Shown: positions 4,620-64,000 of the stretch, piece after piece
Layout of the letters: the number at the start of each line of letters is the position of its first letter
Position numbering within the stretch: position 1 is the stretch's first letter
Assembly (NCBI GenBank): GCA_000146465.1
Contig: CP001952.1
Length of the DNA: 64,000 nt
Strand: one strand, 5' to 3'
The notes under the pieces: generated by a model
Databases searched by the model: none
What the model was told of the DNA's origin: nothing
The model's input: the letters and a program-made list of their open reading frames with translations, nothing else
Translations under genes and position numbers: made by a program

Positions 4620-4684
4620 CTGATAGGGGATTCAACCATTTTGACTTCAAATCCGAAAGACCACAAAGATTTTGTCCTAAAGTA

Positions 4685-5521
4685 TTATTTATTACCAAAA
4701 AGATATACTTTATATATGCAGGTGTACTTCTTGTTTCCTCCGTTGCTTCGAACAACAATCTCAACAGAACTGATTGGTGTTTCCTCCCATTCAAAGGTCT
4801 GGAACCCACATGTGCTTGTGTCATATTCAAACCTCCCCAGAAGTAGATTTCCCTCAGGGCTATTAGAAAAAACCTCGAACTCACGAATTGCACTACTTGT
4901 ATCCTTTGTAACAGGGTGGTAGAGCCCAATCTTGCTGATAGCAGCTTCCTTCTCAAGATCGATGGAAAACTTACATCCAGCCCCTTTGAATGCTAGACAT
5001 TCTCCAATACCAACATTCTCATCAAATATAGTTGATGGTTCCTTGTGCTTTCTAAAGCCCAGAAATCCATACGAAAACAGCTGAGACATGCTTTCAATTC
5101 TTATTCTTGCCCCTTCTTCGATCTTCGCATAATTCACTTCCTTTATATGCTTCATCATTTCAATCTGGCTACTTATCCTAGAGTTTTCCTCCCTCAGTAT
5201 ATTTATTTCCTCCATCAGATTTGTCAAAATCATCGAGTCCATTGGCCTCTTTATGGCCATGTAGAAAAACAGAACATATGGAATGGCAATGGCCATGTAA
5301 ATGGGATAGTCTTTTATACCCTTCCTTTCCTGACCATATCCATTTCCCTCCATCGGCTCTACACTCTTGTTAGCCCTCGCCTTTGGAGCCGCCGCTTGAA
5401 GTATGATTGTTTCATCCATCCCCAAGTTCAATGTCGAGTCGGGGGTTCTCTTCACTTGAAGGCGGTCTCTTCTATTCATGTACCCATGGGAAGACGAAAA
5501 TTTAAAACTCTTGGAACACAA
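4685..5521 (-). CDS. SUN-domain (Sad1/UNC-84) inner nuclear membrane protein
   Basis: A TM segment (IYMAIAIPYVLFFYMAI) and coiled coil are followed by a C-terminal SUN-like domain. The domain ends in the family-typical ...FQTFEWEE...VEIVVRSNGGNKKYTCIYKVYLFG (compare ...NWGHxEYTCLYRFRVHG). Confidence 0.55.
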   Translation of the reverse strand: MCSKSFKFSSSHGYMNRRDRLQVKRTPDSTLNLGMDETIILQAAAPKARANKSVEPMEGNGYGQERKGIKDYPIYMAIAIPYVLFFYMAIKRPMDSMILTNLMEEINILREENSRISSQIEMMKHIKEVNYAKIEEGARIRIESMSQLFSYGFLGFRKHKEPSTIFDENVGIGECLAFKGAGCKFSIDLEKEAAISKIGLYHPVTKDTSSAIREFEVFSNSPEGNLLLGRFEYDTSTCGFQTFEWEETPISSVEIVVRSNGGNKKYTCIYKVYLFGNK

Positions 5522-7980: not shown

Positions 7981-8394
7981 TTATTCCCGAACTTTTTCAA
8001 TAATCTCCTTGACAACGGTTTTTCCCTTTTCTGTGAGCATGTCCTGAGGATGATCGTTTATCCACCCCATGTTCTTTAGATTCTCGAGTACAGAGATCCC
8101 TATTTCTGGATAAGCACCAACATACTTGCTGGGACGGCATCCTCTGTTTTTGGAGGAACCATATTTATTTGCAAGATACTCGGGAGTAACTGTGCCCCTT
8201 ATAGATATCTGCCTCACAATAGAGGCCATTCTCGTGAAATACCAGTCTTCATCAATAGGTGCTTGCTCCCGTCCTTCTCCCGTCTTCATGATATCATGGT
8301 CTTTTATAGGAACCACTTTGTTAGTTGATTTAAGATAAGATTTAAGTGCCTCGTTGAACTTTTCTGGCCTGACATCATAGATCTCTTCCATCAT
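7981..8394 (-). CDS. RPS19: 40S ribosomal protein eS19
   Basis: KDHDIMKTGEGREQAPIDEDWYFTRMASIVRQISIRGTVTPEYLANKYGSSKNRG...YPEIGISVLENLKNMGW matches eS19. The start is set at the internal MMEEIY Met. That Met is preceded by AAAATTTTCACCCCAG on the coding strand, which is the C-rich start motif. The ORF track's extension to 8454 is probably read-through. Confidence 0.85.
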   Translation of the reverse strand: MMEEIYDVRPEKFNEALKSYLKSTNKVVPIKDHDIMKTGEGREQAPIDEDWYFTRMASIVRQISIRGTVTPEYLANKYGSSKNRGCRPSKYVGAYPEIGISVLENLKNMGWINDHPQDMLTEKGKTVVKEIIEKVRE

Positions 8395-8464
8395 CTGGGG
8401 TGAAAATTTTGCTGTCGTCAAAACCAAAAGCCTTACAATTAGGGTGCCTACCATGAAACCCTAA

Positions 8465-8947
8465 ATGACGCCTTCATACTTCATATCGACAAAATGTTGC
8501 ATGGTTCCGCATATACCAGATGCCAAGTCTATTTCTTCCACAAACAAAAATATAAAGATATATGTAGACGATATTTTGTACAAAGATTCAGCCTATGACG
8601 GAGGATTCGACCTGCCGATAAGGGAGTTCTGCGCCATTTCCGATATAAAAACATGCCTTGGATTTAGAAACAAGCCTAGTGTTTTGGTCTCGAAGAGAGG
8701 ACACTACAAACTTAACAAAGAGAGATACGAAGGACTTCTTGAGGTTTGGAGACCGGACTACCATGCCGACTTTGAGACTGGGAAAATCATTATAGAAGGA
8801 AATGAATTGATTGAGCCCAAGGATACCAGAGACTTTGTTGAGCTTTTGAATAGCGGCCATTTGCTTTTTGGAACTGAATTCATTAATACTCTCGTGGAGC
8901 AGGGAATGATGCTAGCCCTTGAGGGGTGTAGACTCGATGTTCTCTAA
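8465..8947 (+). CDS. Hypothetical protein (160 aa)
   Basis: An intact ORF sitting tightly between eS19 and the next gene. I recognise no motifs. Confidence 0.35.
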   Translation: MTPSYFISTKCCMVPHIPDAKSISSTNKNIKIYVDDILYKDSAYDGGFDLPIREFCAISDIKTCLGFRNKPSVLVSKRGHYKLNKERYEGLLEVWRPDYHADFETGKIIIEGNELIEPKDTRDFVELLNSGHLLFGTEFINTLVEQGMMLALEGCRLDVL

Positions 8948-9117
8948 ATATTCGATTGCAAGTGCTGCGGAGATTTGTCTCCTGGGTATCTCAAGTATCT
9001 TTGGAGCATTCGAGAGATAAATGCACTAACATATCTTGTAATTCATAATTTTAATGTTCTTGACAGAATATTTGAAGGGATTGGGAACAATAAGTTAGAT
9101 GGTAAGGAAATAAAGAT

Positions 9118-9131
9118 GGGAATTAATTCCC
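9118..9131. promoter_or_regulatory. Perfect 14-bp palindrome GGGAATTAATTCCC in the 286-bp spacer upstream of the Pho88-like gene. A second TTAATTCCC half-site lies at 9176-9184.
   Basis: Read directly from the sequence. Flanked by the inverted 7-mers CCTACGCC at 9134-9141 and GGCGTAG at 9191-9197. Confidence 0.3.
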
Positions 9132-9233
9132 AGCCTACGCCGGCTCAATGATAGATAGAACTTTTAGTAGTGCTTTTAATTCCCGCTTGGGGCGTAGACA
9201 AAGGTTTAATATACTAGAAAATATTTACCCCAA

Positions 9234-11867: not shown

Positions 11868-11930
11868 CTCAACTGGGGTCAGTCCTTAAAAACATTAAAC
11901 ATCATTGCATTTATTTGGAAATCTTGCTCT

Positions 11931-12988: not shown

Positions 12989-13471
12989 GAAATGGCACAG
13001 GGATTAAGGTTTATATTCTTTTGTTTACAAAATTAAATTTGGTGATATATTTGACACAATTTTGACTCCAAGATTTAATCATTCCCCAAATTACAAATAA
13101 ACTTATATGAGCCTGAACTTTTCAAGGCAGATGGAATAGATTCCACTCCATCCATTTTCTGTTAATCCCTTCAATTCTCCCCAAGGCTTTTCTTCCTATG
13201 TCTGTCTCTTCAATTCCAAAAAGGAACCATGTAATGAATTAGTACCGGGAGATTCTTTAATAAAAATTACTATTACATGGTATATGGGCGCCAAAGCCCA
13301 GTCTTCCTAAGATTCCCACTTTCCCAAACTAGTAAATTTTAATTGTTGCGGGAAAAGCTACAAGCCTGGCACACTGAAGATTGGAAACTGCATTTATTTT
13401 GGATCTTTCTATAATCAGTTTAGAAGGTATCAACCTTCAAGTACTGAAATAAATAGTACAGTCTTCTTACT

Positions 13472-15331: not shown

Positions 15332-16537
15332 TTGGAAGGAACTTATAATTTAAAAATTTGCCCCCTTATAATGCACCAGGAAAATAGAAAGAAACGGATT
15401 CCAGGTATTCACTCATACCTAGCAGTTATAGGAGAGCTTCGGCAAGAGCTTGGGAAGGTTAATGAGTCGATAAACGACCTCCGAGATAAGATATCAGCTA
15501 TTTACAAGCAGGAGAGAGAAAACTCCCCAAAGAATAATTTATACAAGAAGCTAGAAGAGCTGGGTAACGAGATAAAGGCATTGAAGGAGGATAGGTCGAA
15601 AGCATTTAACTCTAAAAACGATGTTGTGGGAGTATATGAGAATGTAAAGAGTGAGATCCAGCCGGAAAAGGGAAAGAAAATGATGAGTGCACAGGAAATC
15701 GATGCGCGCATGAAGGAGATAAACCTCAAGCTGATTTCTTCGAAATGTGATTCCAAAACAGAAAAGATATTTGAGATGGAAATGGAAAATCTTAGGAAAC
15801 AGAAGAAGAATATCGGGATGATGGAGCAGAAGAGCAAGCTTGCTGTAGATATGAAAGCCAAGCTTGATTCGTTGAATGCAGAGATTAAGGATCTGAGCCA
15901 GAAGATAGCAGAGAGGCAGTCTGTTGTAGATGGAATAAAGGCTGAGCTTAAAGAGATAAGCGACCAAGGAAAGCCTAAGAATCCGGCTGTTGAGGGGTAT
16001 GAGAAGAACATTCAGATACTCAAAGCCAAGAGAAGCGATCTTTCGGAGAAGATAAAGGCACAACAGGAGAAGATAAGAGAGAAGGAGGTTGAGTACGATA
16101 AATTCCTTGAAGAGATGGCTATTGCACAGGCACTTGAGAAGCAAAAGGAGGAGATTAAACAGAGAATAAATGCTCTTGAGGAGCAAAAGAACATTCTCTC
16201 TAAAGAGGAGTCGAAGCTTAATCCTTCGAAGTTTGATTCTATAATATTTAGAATGGGGTCTCTTAACCTGTCTGGAGAGAAGATCAGCCTTCCTGTCGAT
16301 CTAGCTCTCTATCTAAGTCAGCATAAGATTCCAATTCCAACATCCCCTAGTCAAGTGGAACCTACTATTGAGACACTTAAGTCTCAGAAGGAAAACTTTG
16401 CAAACCAAGTAGTTGAAAAGAGGAAGGAATTTGAAAGCAAGATCTCTGACCTGGAAAGAAAGATATCCGAAGAGAAGAAAACTTTAATGGAGATGCCTCC
16501 TACTGATATAAAGGTGTTGAAGTTCAAGCGGGATTAA
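15332..16537 (+). CDS. K/E-rich coiled-coil protein of unknown function. A likely alternative start lies at 15371.
   Basis: 401 aa of heptad-rich K/E/L sequence. The internal Met at 15371 is preceded by AAAAATTTGCCCCCTTATA, which combines AAATTT and the CCC motif. The antisense ORFs 15502-16011 and 15551-16186 are low-complexity mirror images. Confidence 0.5.
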   Translation: MEGTYNLKICPLIMHQENRKKRIPGIHSYLAVIGELRQELGKVNESINDLRDKISAIYKQERENSPKNNLYKKLEELGNEIKALKEDRSKAFNSKNDVVGVYENVKSEIQPEKGKKMMSAQEIDARMKEINLKLISSKCDSKTEKIFEMEMENLRKQKKNIGMMEQKSKLAVDMKAKLDSLNAEIKDLSQKIAERQSVVDGIKAELKEISDQGKPKNPAVEGYEKNIQILKAKRSDLSEKIKAQQEKIREKEVEYDKFLEEMAIAQALEKQKEEIKQRINALEEQKNILSKEESKLNPSKFDSIIFRMGSLNLSGEKISLPVDLALYLSQHKIPIPTSPSQVEPTIETLKSQKENFANQVVEKRKEFESKISDLERKISEEKKTLMEMPPTDIKVLKFKRD

Positions 16538-17395
16538 ACTTTGGTTGCATTTTGCGGTTTGATTTATTATATTTAGAAGAAACAGAACTTTCTTGGACAC
16601 TTCCAAGTAATCCCTTCTTTCAGGAGATGTTTGCTGGATGTTAATTATCTTTTCCGGAAGGACTTGGCAGTGCACAGCCAATAATCGTCGATTTCATGGC
16701 GGGTGCTGTGAGTATTTTCTTTTTTTGCTTATGTGATAGCCGAACGATGCGGACTGTTTCTAGGGAGGGGAGTTCTGATGGCCTTGGCGAATAGTAAACC
16801 CCTGCATATCTCTCGTTCATCTTATCGAGTGTTATTCTTGTTAACATTTTCTCTTCTTTGTTTTTACTCCCCTTGGGCTTATTTTGTTTTATATAGACAT
16901 ATGCTTCTGGAAAGTTCTATTGGTACAAACTATCTACTAAGGGTTTCATTGGTTAAAAAGAGGGCAGTGAATCTAAAAAAATCATAGGGCTAGGAGTTTT
17001 ACAACCGGTATAAAAAAGTAAAAAAAAGGCACCCCACTTACCACGTGGAGATGAAACAGCCTTCATGCGGTTTTCATCGTGAATGTCCAATTCTCACTAC
17101 ACAAAATGGAGCAATGGGCATTCATCTGGGCAACACCCTCCACACAATTTCTTTCCTGGGAGATTAAGCAAGATCTGCTTTCTCCTTATTATCTAAGGTT
17201 TGTATCTTTTCCAAGGCTGAGCAACTCTGGAATGGAGAGACATCTATAAGAGGCCAGGCCTGTCTTTCAGTTAACCTCCGTCTTTTAGGAGATAAGACAC
17301 AAATAAATATGTCTGATGATCCTTTACAAAAAGGAGATGCCCTTTTCAAACATTTATGAAAACACCCTTCAAATTCACCGGAATAGAAATTAGAA

Positions 17396-18982
17396 ATGAA
17401 GAGAGAAGAAATAGATGATAGTAACGATTGCCGCATCTACCACGATGACTTCCGCGGCGGCAGACATAGGCCCATATCTGCACCGCCAGTGGATAAGTTC
17501 TTCATTGAGGATGAAGTGGAGCTTGGGGATATACAAACAGATTTGAACTACTCTATTTTTTACAGAAGAAATTGTAAGAACGAGCCTCGACTGCAACCAC
17601 CGAGCTTTTTTATAAGGGGGCAAAGCGGATATTGGGCTAGCCAATATGATGACTTGATAACCAAGGCGTTCTCAAACACCGGGTTTTTTGACATAAAGGT
17701 TACTGGAGAGTCCTCTGCGGAGCTGGAAAATAACAGGTCTCTTGCAGAAAGAATTGACGAGGATTACCCGGAATCTGAGAAGAGTAGTGAGTATAAGGGC
17801 ACATCAAGAGCAACAACACCCATAGGGAATATGAATGTATTAGATACCGAGGCATTTAGTGCGATGCTAAATCTCAAGGGGGGAAAAGGAACAGAAACCA
17901 CTTCCCAAGGAAGCCGTCCCTCTCCTCCCGATGGGGGTATTGAAGGAATTCCTATGGACAGCAAGTTTCTGAGAGAGCTCCTAGAAGTATACGAGGAGCA
18001 AAGTGGAAGAGGAAGTAAAAACATATTTGGAGGTAATACCATGAAAGAGATATGTATCAATGTAAGCAAAGACCAGGAGGGAAGCAGATGCATCCAAAGA
18101 AAAATGGACAGCATTTCTAGGGAGGAGATTTCATGGTTCTTCAATAATATTGTAGAAGCGGCATCGGAATTATCTGCTAATCTGTTTGGAAACTACGTCG
18201 TTCAAAAGATTATACCTCTTTTAACCGAAGGAGAGAGAACAATATTAATAACAAAGCTGGTTGGGCAAATTCATCTTCTTTCTGTTCATCCTTATGGATG
18301 CAGAGTGGTACAAAAGCTGGTGGATGTTTCTTCGGATGTTGATTTTATCCTAGAGGAGGTAAAGGGCAACTTACTAGAACTAATAGAGGATCAAAATGGA
18401 AACCATGTTATTCAGAAATGCATAGAGAAGTGTAAAGACAGGAAAATTATCCTACAACAATTTTCCGAGAACTCTCTGTTTCTGGCCACTCACAAGTACG
18501 GGTGTAGAGTCATTCAGAGAATGCTCGAGTTCTGCAAGAAGGACGAAATCAAAGGTATTGTGGAAGTCCTCATAGGAAACATAAAGACACTTGTTGATGA
18601 CCAGTACGGGAATTATGTTATACAACATATTCTGGCAGTTGGAAAAGAAGAAGAAAGGAACCTTGTCATCGAAAGAATAATTGAAAAGAGCTATGAGCTA
18701 AGTAAATGCAAGTTCTCAAGTAACGTTGTTGAGCAATGTGTTAAGCTTTCAAACAATGGCCAAAGAGAGCAGTTTCTGGAGAAATTCTTGGAGCCTGTAG
18801 GTGGTAAGCCTGGGATGTATTCTATGTGCACCGACATGTACGGGAACTATGTTGTGCAGCGTCTGTACGATTCCTCTGGAGAAGGAGTACGGAAAGAGAT
18901 TAAGAACACACTAAGGCCTTTTGTCAAGGACCTCAAAAAATCTCCGTTTGCAAGACATATCCTCTTCAAAATCAACACATGA
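17396..18982 (+). CDS. Pumilio-family (PUF repeat) RNA-binding protein
   Basis: The C-terminal half carries about 8 PUF repeats with the characteristic spacing: FGNYVVQKII...HPYGCRVVQKLV...QNGNHVIQKCIE...HKYGCRVIQRML...QYGNYVIQHIL...KFSSNVVEQCV...MYGNYVVQRLY. Confidence 0.9.
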   Translation: MKREEIDDSNDCRIYHDDFRGGRHRPISAPPVDKFFIEDEVELGDIQTDLNYSIFYRRNCKNEPRLQPPSFFIRGQSGYWASQYDDLITKAFSNTGFFDIKVTGESSAELENNRSLAERIDEDYPESEKSSEYKGTSRATTPIGNMNVLDTEAFSAMLNLKGGKGTETTSQGSRPSPPDGGIEGIPMDSKFLRELLEVYEEQSGRGSKNIFGGNTMKEICINVSKDQEGSRCIQRKMDSISREEISWFFNNIVEAASELSANLFGNYVVQKIIPLLTEGERTILITKLVGQIHLLSVHPYGCRVVQKLVDVSSDVDFILEEVKGNLLELIEDQNGNHVIQKCIEKCKDRKIILQQFSENSLFLATHKYGCRVIQRMLEFCKKDEIKGIVEVLIGNIKTLVDDQYGNYVIQHILAVGKEEERNLVIERIIEKSYELSKCKFSSNVVEQCVKLSNNGQREQFLEKFLEPVGGKPGMYSMCTDMYGNYVVQRLYDSSGEGVRKEIKNTLRPFVKDLKKSPFARHILFKINT

Positions 18983-22705: not shown

Positions 22706-24415
22706 TTAATTATCAATTCCATCAAAAAAGTCAACAATGATGGAATATGCTTTGTCCGAAACAGTTCTGTCGCTACTGTCCTGCAGCCCTTCTATTGCGT
22801 CGACTATATCTGCCTCAACAATCTTCTCATATATGGGATTCTTACCGTATCGGAGCTCCCACTGTCTTCCTCCATTCAAGGCGTATCTAAAGCAATCAAG
22901 TATTTGGCATTGCATTTCAGGAACATTTGGAACTACATCTAAATAGCTTTGCAGGGCATCAATGAAGCTATTGTCCATAAGAGTCTTAAGCCATTCAAAC
23001 TTCGTGTCAGAACTACTAGGGAGATTGTTACAATGATACATTAAGTTCAAAACTGCCCAGCAAGCTTCCTTTCTTATAAACAGCTCGTAGGACGACATCG
23101 AGTCAATGAGAAGAGGAACAAGATCCGCATCTACAACGGATTTTGCATGCTCTGCAGTTCCAGCCGTGATGTTCGAAAGTGTCCAACATATCTCCTTCCT
23201 TAGTCTTGGCTGCTTTTTGTTCTCCAGTCTGTAGAATATAGGTCTGAAGAATTTCATAAACCCCATTTGTATCAGAGCACTTGTCTGGTCATCGGAGCCT
23301 GTTACTATGTTTCCTATCATCCTTATTATTGGAGAAATTGCGCACAGGCATATCTTTGCGTCTTCCGACGAGTAAGATATTCCGATCAGTCGATTGGTAA
23401 GAGCTTCCAGGAGAGAATATGTTCTACTCATTGTTCCACTTCCAATCACTATGTCTCCACACTCCATGCTCACATCTACAATGTAACTAAGAGCCCAATA
23501 GGCATCACTAACAACCTCTGGATCTCTTATGTTAATTAGCTTGAAAAGGACCTCCAATGACTTTTTCATGTTCTGTTCATTTGGCGGTGGATTTCTCCCT
23601 CTGTTGAGATTCGAAAGGAGCCAGGTAAGATTTCTAACTATTTTTATGTGAATCACGCTTTCATGGAGTTTTTGAAGCAGTCCGAGAACAGTATCGATGG
23701 CTCCTGTTTCAAGTATTATATCTCTCATCCCCTCTGAATCTCCGGCAATGTTTCCCAAGGCCCATACACTTTGATCCAGAACTGCGTCATTTGTGTCCAG
23801 AAGCATCTGGATCAGAAGAGGGACTGCCCCGCAATCTATAACTACTTTTGTTTGCTGAGTGGATCCCGATGAGATATTTGTTATGACCCACGCAGCCTCT
23901 ACCCTAATTTTATTTATTATATCCATAGCAACACCAAACTCAGGCATATCCTGCTGTATCCTGGAGATTGGGATTCCGCTCATTGTCATTTCGGATGACA
24001 TTAAAAAGGATATATTCATAAGCTCTATAAACCTGGGAACACATCCAGAGTCTATGACTGGTTGAATCGGGGGAGAATCTTCTACACTCAGCAATGACCT
24101 GAACTCATAAACACCCTGATGAGCTTGCTCTAGATCGTTACTAAATAGCTTTTCCTTCATAGGGATGAAATTGGAAATGGTTGATGCAGAAATGGAAAGA
24201 TTTCTTTTCTTGTTCAAAAGCTCCTCTTTTTTTTGCTGTCGAAGCTCAACCTGCTGCTCCTCCCTCATTTTTCTTCTGTTTTCTGTTGTTTTACTATCAA
24301 ACATATAGGACCTGGCCATTTCGATGGGTTCAAAATTTACTCGCCTAAACACGTTTCTATGAAAGGAAGAGACAAAAGATGGTTGATAAAGGATCTCCGC
24401 AAAATAGAAACCCAT
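22706..24415 (-). CDS. SRP1: Importin-alpha (karyopherin alpha)
   Basis: 569 aa. The N-terminal IBB (RRKMREEQQVELRQQKKEELLNKKRN) is followed by armadillo repeats with conserved W/N positions (AAWVITNISSG...VWALGNIAGDS...CWTLSNITAGT...ACWAVLNLM). Confidence 0.9.
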   Translation of the reverse strand: MGFYFAEILYQPSFVSSFHRNVFRRVNFEPIEMARSYMFDSKTTENRRKMREEQQVELRQQKKEELLNKKRNLSISASTISNFIPMKEKLFSNDLEQAHQGVYEFRSLLSVEDSPPIQPVIDSGCVPRFIELMNISFLMSSEMTMSGIPISRIQQDMPEFGVAMDIINKIRVEAAWVITNISSGSTQQTKVVIDCGAVPLLIQMLLDTNDAVLDQSVWALGNIAGDSEGMRDIILETGAIDTVLGLLQKLHESVIHIKIVRNLTWLLSNLNRGRNPPPNEQNMKKSLEVLFKLINIRDPEVVSDAYWALSYIVDVSMECGDIVIGSGTMSRTYSLLEALTNRLIGISYSSEDAKICLCAISPIIRMIGNIVTGSDDQTSALIQMGFMKFFRPIFYRLENKKQPRLRKEICWTLSNITAGTAEHAKSVVDADLVPLLIDSMSSYELFIRKEACWAVLNLMYHCNNLPSSSDTKFEWLKTLMDNSFIDALQSYLDVVPNVPEMQCQILDCFRYALNGGRQWELRYGKNPIYEKIVEADIVDAIEGLQDSSDRTVSDKAYSIIVDFFDGIDN

Positions 24416-24462
24416 AAGAATGTATTTCCAAAATAAAACAATTCCTTTCCACCCTAGCCATC

Positions 24463-30420: not shown

Positions 30421-30535
30421 GCCTGGAACTTAGAGTATGGCAAGAGGATCGAAAAGGAAACAGATCTGAAATGCTCCCGTCCTTTTTCCGGCTAGAGATG
30501 GAATTATATTTATTGGAAGCGAACAACCCCTTGGC

Positions 30536-31918: not shown

Positions 31919-32049
31919 GTAAAGGTATTTATTTCCTCTTCGAAAGAACTTCCATAAATCAATAAAATGCAGGCTCAGGTATGAACCCTTCTTTTTAACC
32001 GATTTTTCTAGAACTTTCAAAAGATAAAACAGGGCCTAGTGGTGTCCCC

Positions 32050-39660: not shown

Positions 39661-39755
39661 GTACGAAATAAATTATATCGGCACATATGGTTTTATTAGT
39701 CTGGGATTAGTCTCTGTGGAGACCTAAGAATAAATAAAAATTACCTGGGAAGGGC

Positions 39756-42767: not shown

Positions 42768-42852
42768 GATTGGCAATAAAAGAGCAGTTTGATATATTTT
42801 TGGCATCCAAGATCTTGAAGGACTGATTTCTTTTCTTAGGAGCCCATTCCCA

Positions 42853-46604: not shown

Positions 46605-46656
46605 TCAATGAGGGTTGAACACTTAAGACGATTAACTAACAGAATCTTCAGCCCCA

Positions 46657-46917
46657 ATGGAATTGAAGAAGTTGAAGAAGGCAGCAAAACTTAGAAACAT
46701 CGATCAGATGATTTCTCTTATAGAAAAAATACCATCGAAGAACGCAGCGGATGCAGAAAAATTTTTGTCTGATTTCTACAATCATGAGGTATCTGTAGCC
46801 AATGCTGTCTTCGAATTAACATCATACTCAAAAATACATAAGACAAAGGTAAAACTTCCTCTCAAAGGCTGTTTCACCCTTATTATTCCAAATCCAAAGG
46901 AACGATCTGCTTTTTGA
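46657..46917 (+). CDS. Small hypothetical protein (86 aa)
   Basis: An intact ORF that fills the spacer between Spt5 and the Brix gene. No motif recognised, so it could be spurious. Confidence 0.25.
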   Translation: MELKKLKKAAKLRNIDQMISLIEKIPSKNAADAEKFLSDFYNHEVSVANAVFELTSYSKIHKTKVKLPLKGCFTLIIPNPKERSAF

Positions 46918-46967
46918 TAATAAAACCATATTCCGTTAATTCGTAGATAAAAGCTATCCCCGGAAGA

Positions 46968-48652: not shown

Positions 48653-48868
48653 CTTTATTTATCGCTTGGATTGATATGGAGAAAGAACATCCCTGAAAAG
48701 AGAGAAAACTTCGCAAGGTACAAAGAAAGAGAAACCAAATGGAAACTCTTCAGCAACTATTTGGCCAGAAGATGGTAAGAAACTGTAAGAAGACGTATTA
48801 CAAAAGTAAGGTTTAACCAAAGAGAAGTAAAGGTCATTAAAATAAAAGTTTGTTTATGGAATGCCCCA

Positions 48869-57924: not shown

Positions 57925-59094
57925 CTATTTTTGGAGACTACCTTTCGCGTTTGGAATCAAAGTGACGCCATCATGGGGAATCCTTTGGTTAGCTCCTTCC
58001 TTGAGAGAACTTCTAGTTTCGTCCTCTCTTCCTCTCTTTTCCGCCCGATTCTTGAGGAAGTCAAAGTCGTCAAGCGAAAATCCATCAGGAAGGTCTTCAA
58101 GGAATGAAGATGGTGCTATGTTATAGTCTTTACTCCGCTTAGGAGAAGCTGCATCTAGGTTTACTGAAGGCTTTTCTATTATTGCAGTGCTGAATAAATC
58201 ATTACATAGGCCATCTGTTCGATGGAGATCATACTCCAGCTGTTGATCTCCTGATGAAAACAATTTATCCTTAATGTTGAATGCGGGAAAAGCCTGTTCC
58301 AAAAATCCATTTTTCTGTATTTCCTCGAATTGCTTGTCATATATATTTGGAGATGATTTTGGAACAGATGGTGCAGTAGGTGTTTTTTTCTGCATTTGCT
58401 GGTCGAAAAGGATATCCTGCTGTGGCATCGTCCTTCCCTGGCTGTACATCATCCCCATTGGCAGGACTTTATTTTCTATCCCCCTTAAATATCGCGGGTC
58501 CACATCTCCTCCCATTCTTTTGCTATTCTGCCTTGTATGGCTTACAAATCCAACCATTCCATGAGGCAACATGCTATTTCTTGTGAGATTATTAATATAC
58601 TTATTATACGTAAATAGGTTTGTTTCCCGTCTCAAATCCCTTTCTAATGCATCACAAAACAAAGCGTCGTGTGGGACACTATACCAGTAAAAAACCTTCT
58701 GCTTCTTTTGAGTTCTTATGCAACCGTTCTTGTATAGAAACTCCAAAAACTCGCTTCTAGGACCCTCAAGCGTTGCATCTATCCCCGGTTTCAAGTTTCT
58801 CAGATCAGAAAACACTCCCTCCTCAAATTTTTTTAGACTTGTAAGGCATCTTCCAGCATTTTGGAACCTCCAAACTAGTATTTTCACTATGTCTGTCCCT
58901 GTAATGAAGAAATGCATGTTCCATAATACACAATGAATATAATCTCCATTCTTCAGCTGAAACTTCTTGATTCTTTCACCGTCCCGAAACTCCTTTGGGG
59001 CATTGGATAGAAACTCAAACAGTTCCTTATCACTTTGGGCATTCATCTTTATTTGTTTATTACCATTTGTTTTTATATCCAAGACACAAAACAA
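57925..59094 (-). CDS. STE12: STE12-like transcription factor (STE homeodomain-like DNA-binding domain)
   Basis: The N-terminus matches the fungal STE domain almost block for block: FQLKNGDYIHCVLWNMHFFITGTDIVKILVWRFQNAGRCLTSLKKFEEGVFSDLRNLKPGIDATLEGPRSEFLEFLYKNGCIRTQKKQKVFYWYSVPHDALFCDALERDLRRE. Yeast Ste12 reads ...FVSCVFWNNLYYITGTDIVKCCLYRMQKFGREVVQKKKFEEGIFSDLRNLKCGIDATLEQPKSEFLSFLFRNMCLKTQKKQKVFFWFSVAHDKLFADALERDLKRE. Confidence 0.85.
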   Translation of the reverse strand: MFCVLDIKTNGNKQIKMNAQSDKELFEFLSNAPKEFRDGERIKKFQLKNGDYIHCVLWNMHFFITGTDIVKILVWRFQNAGRCLTSLKKFEEGVFSDLRNLKPGIDATLEGPRSEFLEFLYKNGCIRTQKKQKVFYWYSVPHDALFCDALERDLRRETNLFTYNKYINNLTRNSMLPHGMVGFVSHTRQNSKRMGGDVDPRYLRGIENKVLPMGMMYSQGRTMPQQDILFDQQMQKKTPTAPSVPKSSPNIYDKQFEEIQKNGFLEQAFPAFNIKDKLFSSGDQQLEYDLHRTDGLCNDLFSTAIIEKPSVNLDAASPKRSKDYNIAPSSFLEDLPDGFSLDDFDFLKNRAEKRGREDETRSSLKEGANQRIPHDGVTLIPNAKGSLQK

Positions 59095-59522
59095 AGAATT
59101 GTTTATCTTGTTTCATATCAATATCTCCTTATGTCACTGTCCTACGCCTTCTTTCTGCCTCATCTTCCATTTCTCCCGTTTTCTAACAACGTTATAATTA
59201 AAACCTCTAAAATCAAGGGTTATATTGAAAATAAGCCCTTAATACTAACAATGCCAAAATGCTTAAAGCAAAATCTCAATCATTAAATTTTCTGAAAAGG
59301 ATACTTCTACTAGGCGTTGGATATAAAAGATGGCCTTTAGCCTAATCCATTGGCGTTAAGGGATCATCATATTCTCCTTAAGAGTTTCCATAATCGGTTA
59401 TAATTATCCCGCCTTTGCTAATTGTTTAAAAAGGACATAGCTCCTTTCAGTTTCCTTTAACCAACCAACAAAAAATGCCCGTAAATTTGAGGAGTATATA
59501 CTTGAATTTTTAGCAGTAAAGT

Positions 59523-61451: not shown

Positions 61452-61868
61452 GGGCTTTCTTGCCAGGGCTTATTTCTTCCCAGACTCCCTCCTACAATCT
61501 AGCTTCTCTTGATTTTCGACTCTGTCTTTGCAAACGACTTGTCTATTCTCTTCCCAACCATCCCTCTGCTCTTGCTCTTCCTTCCACTAATCATCCGAGG
61601 AAGTGTTTTTATAACTGTAATGGCAATCACAAAAACCAGAAGGACAATGGAGAATGTGTGGAGAACTGCAATTACACTACTTCCTTCAACCCCGGGGAAA
61701 AAAGCCATTTTGAAAGGAAGTGTTTTGGATGTATTTAATAGTTTTTGATGTGTCTGGCAGAGGCCTATTGGTCACTTCTGTGCATGGGCGACCACTCATC
61801 CCGCAGAGGTGCCTTCATCCGCCGCCAGGTTGTCTGGGATGTAATCCCTTGGTGCAGAAGCCCTGGAA

Positions 61869-62669
61869 ATGGGACACCTGTGGAAGACAGCCTTGGACTG
61901 GGCAGGGGTGCTTGGACAGAATCTCAGGAAGGAGTTTGATGGCAACGCCAGGCTCAAGGATGCATGCTCGCGGATTGCAAGGGAGTGGAGCGAGTGGAGA
62001 GAAGGGGTGGAGAAGACCGGTGTGTTCTGGCTCGGACAGAGGGCTGGGGAGATATCGGGGAGAGTAATGAGGCTTTCGGATGCCTCGATGGGACTTGCAC
62101 TGGAGGCAGCAGGGATTGGGAGAGTGTGGCGGGGACAGAGGGAGTTCCAGAAGAGACTGAACAGGATGTTCAGGATTCCGCAGTACTACGGAGGGATCCG
62201 GAAGAGTGAGGGGGAAAGCGGCAGAGACAGGAGGGCCGGGGGACTGGTCCAGTTCAGGCCCAGCCTCATGGGAATGGGATGGAGAGTTTACTCTTGGATC
62301 AGGCGGGGATTTGGAGTGGGGTGGAATGACCTGGACATAGAAGAGATCGAGAATGAGCAGCTGAGCAGGATATTTGAAGGGATGGAAGGACAGGGGGAGT
62401 CTGGGCCATGGACGGAGGAGGGGGCGGCAGACATTCACAGCCTGTGGAAGGAGATAGGGGGTTCTGGGATGTCTGTTGTAGACATCAGGAATGTCTCGAC
62501 GGTGGGGAGTATTGGGAGACGGAGGCTTGAGTCTGGATTTGAAGTGGAGATTGCAGGACAGAAGGGGGGGAAATGGACCAGACATGTGTTTGTGATGCAG
62601 GCGGTGTTTGAGCGCGGGGCAGACGGGAGATGGAGTCTCGGCAGACTCAGATGGACAAGGGTAGGATAG
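61869..62669 (+). CDS. ORF of uncertain coding status in the GC-rich, purine-skewed segment. The predicted protein is G/R/E/W-rich and low in complexity.
   Basis: 266 codons. It is divergent from the exosome gene and convergent with eL35 at a 22-nt spacing, which fits the local packing. However, the antisense strand also carries a 256-codon P-rich ORF (61815-62585), so the open frame may be compositional. Confidence 0.25.
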   Translation: MGHLWKTALDWAGVLGQNLRKEFDGNARLKDACSRIAREWSEWREGVEKTGVFWLGQRAGEISGRVMRLSDASMGLALEAAGIGRVWRGQREFQKRLNRMFRIPQYYGGIRKSEGESGRDRRAGGLVQFRPSLMGMGWRVYSWIRRGFGVGWNDLDIEEIENEQLSRIFEGMEGQGESGPWTEEGAADIHSLWKEIGGSGMSVVDIRNVSTVGSIGRRRLESGFEVEIAGQKGGKWTRHVFVMQAVFERGADGRWSLGRLRWTRVG

Positions 62670-62690
62670 GACAAGATGGAAGAATGCAGT

Positions 62691-63059
62691 TTATTCATTA
62701 TAGGCAAATATGACTTTCGGGAATTTACGCTCTTTGGCTCTCTGTCTTGCTGTTTTCCTCCTGAGCTGGTGCTTTGTGAGGGCCTGTCTCTTTGCCCTGT
62801 TGAGCCTGGGCCTGAGGATGTTTGGGAGCTTGTGGACAGGAATCCCCTTGTACTCGTCGACCAGCTTCTCAAGAATCTTCTCGCGGCGGATGGTGAGCAG
62901 ACGAGCCAGATTCTTCCTGGTTGTCTTGATGTCGTCCTCTCCGACATCTCCACTGTTCTTCTTCTGGCGGAGGGCTGCCAGGTCGGCCTTGATCTCCCTG
63001 GCCTTCTCCTCGAGCTGCTCAACACTCAGCTGCCTGAGCTCGGATGCCTCGATCTTCAT
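62691..63059 (-). CDS. RPL35: 60S ribosomal protein eL35 (uL29 family)
   Basis: MKIEASELRQLSVEQLEEKAREIKADLAALRQKK...IKTTRKNLARLLTIRREKILEKL...KYKGIPVHKLPNILRPRLNRAKRQALTKHQLRRKTARQRAKERKFPK is collinear with eL35 (MAKIKAxELRxKSKEELLKQLxDLKxEL..LRVAK...IRVVRKSIARVLTV..). The start is set at the internal MKIEAS Met, which is preceded by GCCCTA. Confidence 0.8.
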   Translation of the reverse strand: MKIEASELRQLSVEQLEEKAREIKADLAALRQKKNSGDVGEDDIKTTRKNLARLLTIRREKILEKLVDEYKGIPVHKLPNILRPRLNRAKRQALTKHQLRRKTARQRAKERKFPKVIFAYNE

Positions 63060-63142
63060 TAGGGCTTCTGGAATGCAAAGATTTGAAGCAAAATCTGCAG
63101 GGGACAAAAACGGACAGGGAGGGCGGCAAGGAACAGGCGTGG

Positions 63143-63355
63143 TCAGAGGGTCGGGGACATGGCGACAAAGAGAATGTTCTCGCCCCTCAGAAACAGGACG
63201 CGGCCTGCAGAGTTCTGGACATCGTGGCTTTGCAGCATCAGGTTGATGTGCTCGTCAAACCCCTCCAGAGTGCCTGTATAGACATCGCCGGTCTTTGTTT
63301 TTATCTCGACCCTCTCGTTTAAGTACATCTTGAGAAAGCAGAACGGATCCAGCAT
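63143..63355 (-). CDS. Sm/LSm-fold protein
   Basis: MLDPFCFLKMYLNERVEIKTKTGDVYTGTLEGFDEHINLMLQSHDVQNSAGRVLFLRGENILFV carries the Sm1 and Sm2 motifs: V.IKTKTG..Y.G.L..FD.HMNLVL in Sm1 and RGENI in Sm2. The 273-codon ORF in the track extends upstream as read-through. The start is set at MLDP, preceded by GCCCTGCACTTCTG. Confidence 0.65.
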   Translation of the reverse strand: MLDPFCFLKMYLNERVEIKTKTGDVYTGTLEGFDEHINLMLQSHDVQNSAGRVLFLRGENILFVAMSPTL

Positions 63356-63448
63356 CAGAAGTGCAGGGCACGGTAAAATTTTCTTATGGACGGCAGAGCA
63401 CACGGGCGGAGCAGAGGCAGGATTTATGGCCGGGGCAGGCAGCCCTTG

Positions 63449-63943
63449 ATGAGATATTTGGAGATGAGCTGCATATCGAAAACAAACAAACTGTTCCAGA
63501 AGCTCCAGGACATCAATCCGCAGCTCAACATCGAGGTGGAGGCATACTCCTGCAAGTCGAGCAGGAAGCAGAGGGGACAGAGGGATGTGGAGAAGCCTCT
63601 CCGGTACCTGCAGTCTGCGCTGGGGCTGCGGTTTCCAGACTACGACTTCCATGGGGAGCCGTGGAGGTCGTTTGAAAGGAAGACGCTGGAGGAGGTGCTT
63701 CGGGAGGTGGCATATTCGATCAGCACAACACACAAGAACAGCGAGGATGTAAAGGAGTTTGTGGGGTTTCTGGAGATGATTCTGGACAGGTCGATCAACA
63801 CGGGGTCGTGCTTGATATTTTCGTACAAGAACCGGATGGGGCCTTTTGAGGACTGCTTCTGGTACTTTTCGTTCCTGCTGTTTAGCAAGAGGCAGAAGAG
63901 AGTGGTGATGCTCAATGCATTTATGAGCAGAAGCGATGTGTAA
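63449..63943 (+). CDS. MAF1: Maf1, RNA polymerase III repressor
   Basis: MRYLEM...IEVEAYSCKSSRK (Maf1 box A, ..RIEAYSCK..), then PDYDFHGEPWRSF (box B, SDYDFS), then the C-terminal GPFEDCFWYFSFLLFSKRQKRVVMLNAF (box C, LWSFNYFFYNKKLKRIV). The start is set at the Met preceded by GCCCTTG. Confidence 0.8.
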   Translation: MRYLEMSCISKTNKLFQKLQDINPQLNIEVEAYSCKSSRKQRGQRDVEKPLRYLQSALGLRFPDYDFHGEPWRSFERKTLEEVLREVAYSISTTHKNSEDVKEFVGFLEMILDRSINTGSCLIFSYKNRMGPFEDCFWYFSFLLFSKRQKRVVMLNAFMSRSDV

Positions 63944-64000
63944 ATACCTGCGGGAGCAGGACATTAAAGTTCTTAATTGAGATTGAGTGTTGTGTGGTTT

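Follow-up and report, generated by a model that had tools for sequence, protein, structure and literature searches.

Coding-strand C-runs before start codons in part of Encephalitozoon intestinalis chromosome XI, a probable case of the microsporidian CCC-like promoter signal

Upstream of many start codons in a 64,000-nucleotide stretch of microsporidian DNA (the window) is a short run of cytosines on the coding strand, which is probably the known CCC-like proximal promoter signal of these organisms. The window is the right part of chromosome XI of Encephalitozoon intestinalis ATCC 50506, to which eight of its ORFs were assigned by exact protein identity (ADM12646–ADM12683); look-ups also matched Eint_111570, 111615, 111690, 111950 and 111970. 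It carries ~60 protein genes per 64 kb at ~40% GC, with 54% GC in the final 2 kb. All strings quoted in the initial annotation, made from the letters alone, were found where it had placed them, and its attribution of the C-run to a reported microsporidian arrangement of CCC-like and AAATTT-like elements agrees with the literature, which describes the same arrangement for the genus (PMC2803860, PMC5499648, PMC10815200).

Enrichment and conservation of the C-run

A motif-blind set of starts was obtained by taking the first ATG of each of 55 non-overlapping, greedily chosen long ORFs. CCC lies within positions −15 to −1 at 26 of these 55 starts (binomial p = 1e-12 to 1e-13), as expected from the claim that many starts are preceded by a C-run. 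The corresponding rates are 9.9% at random positions within the window, 8.8% at other ATGs (211/2411), 7.3% at in-frame internal ATGs (34/468) and 4/55 downstream of stop codons. No other 3-mer comes near CCC in enrichment at the motif-blind starts, and the start positions of CCC peak at −11 to −3. GGG is found at only 4/55 starts; the C-run is therefore specific to the coding strand, and a GGG alternative is rare. Among starts supported by orthologues or annotation, a set that draws in part on annotations made with the help of the motif, CCC is present at 37/60 within −15 to −1 and at 41/60 within −20 to −1. Against real-sequence controls, p is ~1e-12 to 1e-22 over the motif-blind and supported sets.

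The distance from the end of the C-run to the ATG ranges from 0 to 15 nt (median ~4, modal 2–5 nt), with no fixed register. Most examples are located in the part of the window with 38–43% GC (Table 1). The motif is real, as the initial annotation held, but not universal: that annotation listed positives only, whereas 19 of 60 genes (about one third) have no CCC within 20 nt, so the C-run is not obligatory. Its gene labels stood by Pfam or NCBI names for eS19, Hsp110-type, ABCE1, Spt5, proteasome alpha, NFS1, Brix, Imp4, Pho88, eL35, LSm and Maf1, while the Nsp1-like (FG-Nup) and PCI labels have weak Pfam matches only.

Table 1 Signals, the U1 snRNA gene and selected start codons in the window.
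Feature	Position	Strand	Remarks
ABCE1 CCCC	4626–4629	−	ATG 4619
eS19 CCCC	8397–8400	−	2 nt upstream of ATG 8394; ATGATG at 8394/8391
eS19 AAATTT-like box AAAATTTT	8403–8410	−	upstream of CCCC
Pho88 CCCC	9228–9231	+	ATG 9234
Proteasome alpha CCCC	11875–11878	−	ATG 11867; accccag conserved in 5 species
Coiled-coil gene AAATTT then CCCCC	15354–15365	+	ATG 15371; conserved in 5 species
TATAAAA (17009–17015) and CCCC (17032–17035)	17009–17035	+	immediately upstream of U1 5′ end
U1 snRNA gene	~17036–17185	+	ACUUACC 5′ end, four-way junction, Sm site AAUUUCUUU at 17146, terminal stem-loop
Importin-alpha AAATTT and CCC	24326–24338	−	internal start 24319
NFS1 CCC	24452–24454	+	ATG 24463
Nsp1-like nucleoporin gene CCCC	30527–30530	+	ATG 30536
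Hsp110-type gene CCCC	32046–32049	+	abuts ATG 32050, spacing 0
TOG-domain gene, two GGG triplets below ATAAATAAAAA box	39747–39754	+	ATG 39756
Imp4 CCC	42849–42851	+	ATG 42853
Spt5 CCC	46612–46614	−	ATG 46604
86-aa ORF CCCC	46651–46654	+	ORF 46657–46917, divergent from Spt5
Brix-domain gene CCCC	46958–46961	+	ATG 46968
PCI-like gene CCCC	48864–48867	+	ATG 48869
Eint_111970 CCC	61861–61863	+	ATG 61869; GC-rich block
eL35 CCC	63062–63064	−	ATG 63059; GC-rich block
LSm AAATTT (63376–63381) and CCC (63366–63368)	63366–63381	−	ATG 63355
Maf1 CCC	63443–63445	+	conserved start ATG 63449
zf-CHY	start 1678		matches public record exactly
Eint_111570	start 12323		matches public record exactly
Importin-alpha	start 24319		matches public record exactly
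Eint_111690	start 28635		matches public record exactly
MFS2	start 38878		same motif and orthologue logic; predicted
UBC	start 51933		matches public record exactly
SMC5	start 52529		matches public record exactly
hyp131	start 56075		matches public record exactly
Eint_111950	start 60206		matches public record exactly

Conservation was followed at syntenic loci around three anchors (proteasome alpha, Maf1 and the Hsp110-type gene) in E. cuniculi, E. hellem, E. romaleae and Ordospora colligata, at which gene order is identical. The offset of the C-run is nearly constant across species while the flanking bases diverge; within Encephalitozoon, identity is 75–85% at C-run positions compared with 51–64% at the other bases of −20 to −1. 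Anchored on the ATG, the cross-species identity profile has two peaks, at about −28 to −20 and −9 to −3. The C-run of eS19 is conserved as aaaattttcacccca[ga] in four Encephalitozoon species and as aaaaaattaccccaat in Ordospora, and upstream of importin-alpha the three Encephalitozoon species compared have aaattttgaacccatc[ga]aaATG in common, with the one-base-shorter aaaatttgacccatcaaaATG in Ordospora. The 27 nucleotides upstream of the TOG gene, which is without CCC, do not differ between E. intestinalis, E. hellem and E. cuniculi.

Presence or absence of CCC is concordant with E. cuniculi in 41 of 45 genes (30 both, 11 neither, 4 discordant; p = 4e-7), with E. hellem in 42 of 45 (31 both, 11 neither, 3 discordant), with E. 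romaleae in 15 of 18, and with Ordospora, in which the background CCC rate is 0.077, in 29 of 34 (20 both, 9 neither, 5 discordant; p = 1e-4). Judged by these alignments, having or lacking CCC is a stable property of each gene.

At the GC-rich end (61.8–64 kb) the chance rate of CCC per 15-nt window reaches 0.19. The motif was said to occur inside this GC island too, and all four genes there have CCC, conserved in E. cuniculi and E. hellem. The block itself (~61500–64000) comprises a small CDS, Eint_111970, eL35, LSm and Maf1; E. cuniculi and E. hellem carry a second copy of it at a different chromosome end, and in these species the subtelomeric DUF3654, DUF1609 and DUF2463 families come after it. 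Its E. intestinalis proteins have two accession series; together with the duplication, this indicates that the 'GC island' is the beginning of a shared subtelomeric segment.

The U1 snRNA gene and the upstream A/T-rich boxes

In the gap between the PUF gene and a small CDS is a highly conserved 160-nt block, in which the U1 snRNA gene was found. The fold predicted by RNAalifold from five species is the U1 cloverleaf, with the Sm site unpaired and a terminal stem-loop, and 13 of its 45 pairs have compensatory changes. In all five species TATAAAA is located ~27 nt upstream of U1, and no nucleotide separates CCC(C) from ACUUACC. Belkorchia et al. (PMC5499648) described Encephalitozoon U1 as having a conserved ACUUACC at its 5′ end and an Sm site that departs from the human one at positions 6, 8 and 9, and the ACUUACC 5′ end and the Sm site AAUUUCUUU of the window agree with this. 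A minus-strand reading of the block, with an Sm-like site AUUUUGUG and a T-run, was dropped for the plus strand, which offers ACUUACC, AAUUUCUUU and the cloverleaf. Rfam gave no match in the whole window at the gathering threshold, nor in 16840–17400 at E ≤ 10; U1 was recognized only from cross-species conservation, ACUUACC and the RNAalifold fold. No tRNA was predicted by ARAGORN in the window.

U1, the product of a non-coding Pol II gene, is untranslated, and its 5′ end is set by ACUUACC, which pairs with the 5′ splice site. As this untranslated RNA must begin within a few nucleotides of ACUUACC, the C-run before it would be a transcription element close to the start site, and the arrangement favours a role in transcription initiation, not translation.

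The AAATTT element, which the initial annotation had also placed near starts, is present within −45 to −8 of 9 of 58 genes, compared with 1.5 expected (p = 1.7e-5), and is conserved. Of the only two ribosomal-protein genes in the window, eS19 has AAATTT and eL35 is without an exact copy. The element is also found at importin-alpha, TAF5, Sad1, Der1, an RRM protein and a coiled-coil gene, and in the window it is not confined to ribosomal-protein genes. In eS19, the coiled-coil gene and importin-alpha it lies only 15–19 nt from the ATG, which is too close for the canonical TATA-to-TSS spacing of 25–30 nt.

TATAWA or ATAAATA is located at −25 to −32 of U1, STE, UDPGP, MFS1, Myb, RabGAP and TOG. 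Genes without CCC are A/T-rich upstream and usually have a conserved TATA-like box at −25 to −32 (for example, UDPGP, MFS1, STE, hyp231 and hyp104), and membership of a class, 'C-run plus A/T box' or 'TATA-like box only', is conserved from E. intestinalis to Ordospora. That these are two evolutionarily stable promoter classes with different initiation routes, which could underlie stage-specific expression with few transcription factors, is a tentative idea that we consider rather unlikely. As an example, a putative C-run-binding factor serving several polymerases could give rise to near-leaderless mRNAs, and a TBP route to mRNAs with longer leaders.

The top enriched 6-mers in −45 to −1 are AAATAA, AATAAA and ATAAAA (11–12 of 58 genes, compared with ~1.7 expected); they may represent TATA-like boxes or polyadenylation signals belonging to the preceding gene or, in so compact a genome, serve as both. 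Two unusually conserved non-coding stretches, 59047–59125 and 12989–13090, are located upstream of two transcription-factor genes. One, in front of the STE-like gene and in the longest intergenic gap of the window, is ~95% identical in three species; the other, in front of the Myb gene, is conserved as far as Ordospora. A regulatory function is probable for both. The Myb upstream region also contains an E2F-like site, TTTCCCGC on the minus strand at 13348–13355 (GCGGGAAA on the plus strand), inside a block cttttcccgcaa[ct]aattaa conserved in four Encephalitozoon species, and a second copy of the site is found at 58283.

Start codons and gene models

The C-run had been put forward as a practical tool for choosing start codons, and the rule 'first ATG preceded by CCC' recovers 51 of 58 supported starts, compared with 43 of 58 for 'first ATG'; the comparison is in part circular, since the signal had itself served in making the annotations. 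The internal methionine proposed for eS19 (8394) is correct: position 2 of the Pfam S19e profile falls at residue 25 of the long form, and this start also fits the orthologues, all of 137–139 aa. For LSm, the start at 63355 is supported by Pfam, exact look-ups and the conserved C-run. The Maf1 start at 63449 is likewise right, with an MRYLE start conserved in four species and gcagccctt upstream; a 185-aa form from ATG 63386 (Pfam offset of residue 53 to profile position 47) was rejected, this ATG being GTG or GGG in other species. The eL35 start at 63059 also holds, but the choice of an internal methionine is moot, as the ORF has a single ATG. The first ATG of importin-alpha (24415) was rejected as the start, the Pfam IBB offset fitting the 537-aa form from 24319, and Pfam and exact look-ups overruled two greedy longest-ORF picks at the GC-rich end, 62676–63062 on the plus strand and a 273-aa LSm extension.

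Public E. intestinalis models are already consistent with the motif, including the revised ADM12656.2 and ADM12694.2 and the added small CDS Eint_111615. The 86-aa ORF likewise appears to have been added by newer annotations, to judge from a gap in accession numbering; it and Spt5 are divergent and 52 nt apart (46605–46656), each with its own strand-specific C-run. The use of the C-run is in annotation, where it helps to find true starts as well as small and ncRNA genes in the highly compact genomes of microsporidia.

In the gene at 8465–9130 (+), which resembles queuine tRNA-ribosyltransferase (TGT), an in-frame TAA is found at 8945–8947, where orthologues of 220–231 aa have a Gly codon; the reading frame is conserved past the stop (IFDCKCCGDLSPGYL...). 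The truncated 160-aa product is encoded on five contigs, including one from an independent read-set assembly, and the nonsense codon is therefore real rather than a sequencing error. It marks a pseudogene, a truncated protein or read-through.

Proposed mechanism, alternatives and known systems

Owing to tight gene packing, the core promoter would occupy the ~30 nt that immediately precede the coding sequence. An AAATTT-like or TATA-like box, rich in A/T, would be located at about −32 to −15, and the short coding-strand C-run, ending 0–15 nt before the ATG, would mark or adjoin the RNA polymerase start site. Initiation at the C-run would yield mRNAs almost without a 5′ leader, in which the first AUG of the transcript is the start codon, and for this reason the motif would identify true start codons. 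We infer the position of transcript 5′ ends relative to the C-run from the literature: 5′RACE in E. cuniculi gave 5′ UTRs of 1–7 nt, with a CCC-like sequence upstream of the mapped starts (PMC2803860), and CCC or GGG adjoins the RACE-mapped starts of 18 ncRNAs (PMC5499648). Where the spacing to the ATG is 0, as in the Hsp110-type and RNase PH-like genes, the transcript would either lack a leader altogether or have its first nucleotide in the C-run or 5′ of it.

Out-of-frame ATGs upstream of the C-run occur at background (18, compared with 20.2 expected), and those between the C-run and the start are rare (1, compared with 4.3 expected, a weak difference with Poisson p ~0.07); this distribution agrees weakly with the C-run as a transcription element. 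Conserved out-of-frame ATGs are found directly upstream of or overlapping the C-run in Sad1 (5480–5492), Maf1 (63422–63448) and the TGT-like gene (8448–8464), in contexts kept across species (cccATGggtacATG; ggatttATGg...), and would be tolerable only if transcripts start downstream of them.

The C-run could instead act in the mRNA, as a cap-proximal or Kozak-like context by which a reduced ribosome selects the AUG on short leaders. Its place immediately 5′ of the AUG, with a modal spacing of 2–5 nt, and its power to predict the correct start codon would suit such a role, and with reported UTRs of 1–7 nt (PMC2803860) some of the Cs could be transcribed. We nevertheless consider a translational role very unlikely, as the spacing varies over 0–15 nt with no fixed register to the AUG, a TATA-like box and CCC also precede the untranslated U1 snRNA in five species, the motif is reported for ncRNAs made by other polymerases (PMC5499648), and genes without CCC are stably so and presumably still translated. 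Much the same low probability attaches to an RNA 5′-processing signal, beside which long overlapping or polycistronic transcripts would be cut into monocistronic, near-leaderless mRNAs. Transcripts that read through or span several genes have been recorded in E. cuniculi and Antonospora (PMC2803860), and the motif can sit in the ORF of the upstream gene, as it does for Eint_111570, or, for importin-alpha, in the upstream ORF extension; but a conserved TATA-like or AAATTT box accompanies the C-run at a promoter-like distance, and divergent pairs (Spt5 and the 86-aa ORF; LSm and Maf1) have their own strand-specific copies. We also know of no cleavage machinery of this kind.

Chance or composition, in the form of C-rich intergenic DNA or the GC-rich subtelomeric block, has a negligible probability. 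The chance rate at the GC-rich end is the one point in its favour, and it is opposed by the p values, the strand and position specificity, the gene-by-gene conservation out to Ordospora with its low background, and the location of most examples at 38–43% GC; the comparison within the window already refutes it.

The promoter signal that we take the C-run to represent has been described by Cornman et al. 2009 (as cited in PMC2803860), Peyretaillade et al. 2009 (PMC2803860) and Belkorchia et al. 2017 (PMC5499648), the last reporting it at genes of all three polymerases, and is used by the 2024 annotation tool MicroAnnot (PMC10815200). E. intestinalis itself is covered by published work (PMC2803860, PMC4589312, PMC5499648, PMC10815200). 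All of this is already published: the C-run and the range of species in which it occurs, GGG as its alternative, AAATTT, the copies at ncRNA genes and the use in re-annotation. A literature search for recent work on leaderless translation or genome-wide TSS maps in Encephalitozoon found nothing relevant.

The elements of the window resemble the published signal in being a triplet within ~15 nt of the ATG, on the coding strand, in the same genus and species, with a rare GGG (TOG gene), AAATTT at some genes and a copy before U1. No essential difference separates the two. AAATTT here extends beyond ribosomal-protein genes, and exact CCC is present at 62–68% of starts, compared with ~80% CCC-or-GGG-like in E. 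cuniculi, a lower figure that is expected from the exact triplet required and the lower GC of the genome. With the canonical TATA box and Inr they share the two-part layout of an upstream A/T-rich box and a short element at the start site; TATAAAA is located ~27 nt before the U1 5′ end and 25–32 nt before ATGs of genes without CCC. The start-site element differs from the canonical Inr (YYANWYY) in being a C-run; A/T boxes only 15–19 nt from the ATG, as in several genes, are unlike canonical TATA; and, unlike either, the microsporidian element is reported at genes of all three polymerases (PMC5499648). The C-run is similar to a Kozak context in lying just 5′ of the AUG and in helping to predict starts, and unlike it in having no fixed register and in preceding a non-coding RNA gene; the MicroAnnot authors regard only a +4 A/G bias as the true translational context in microsporidia (PMC10815200).
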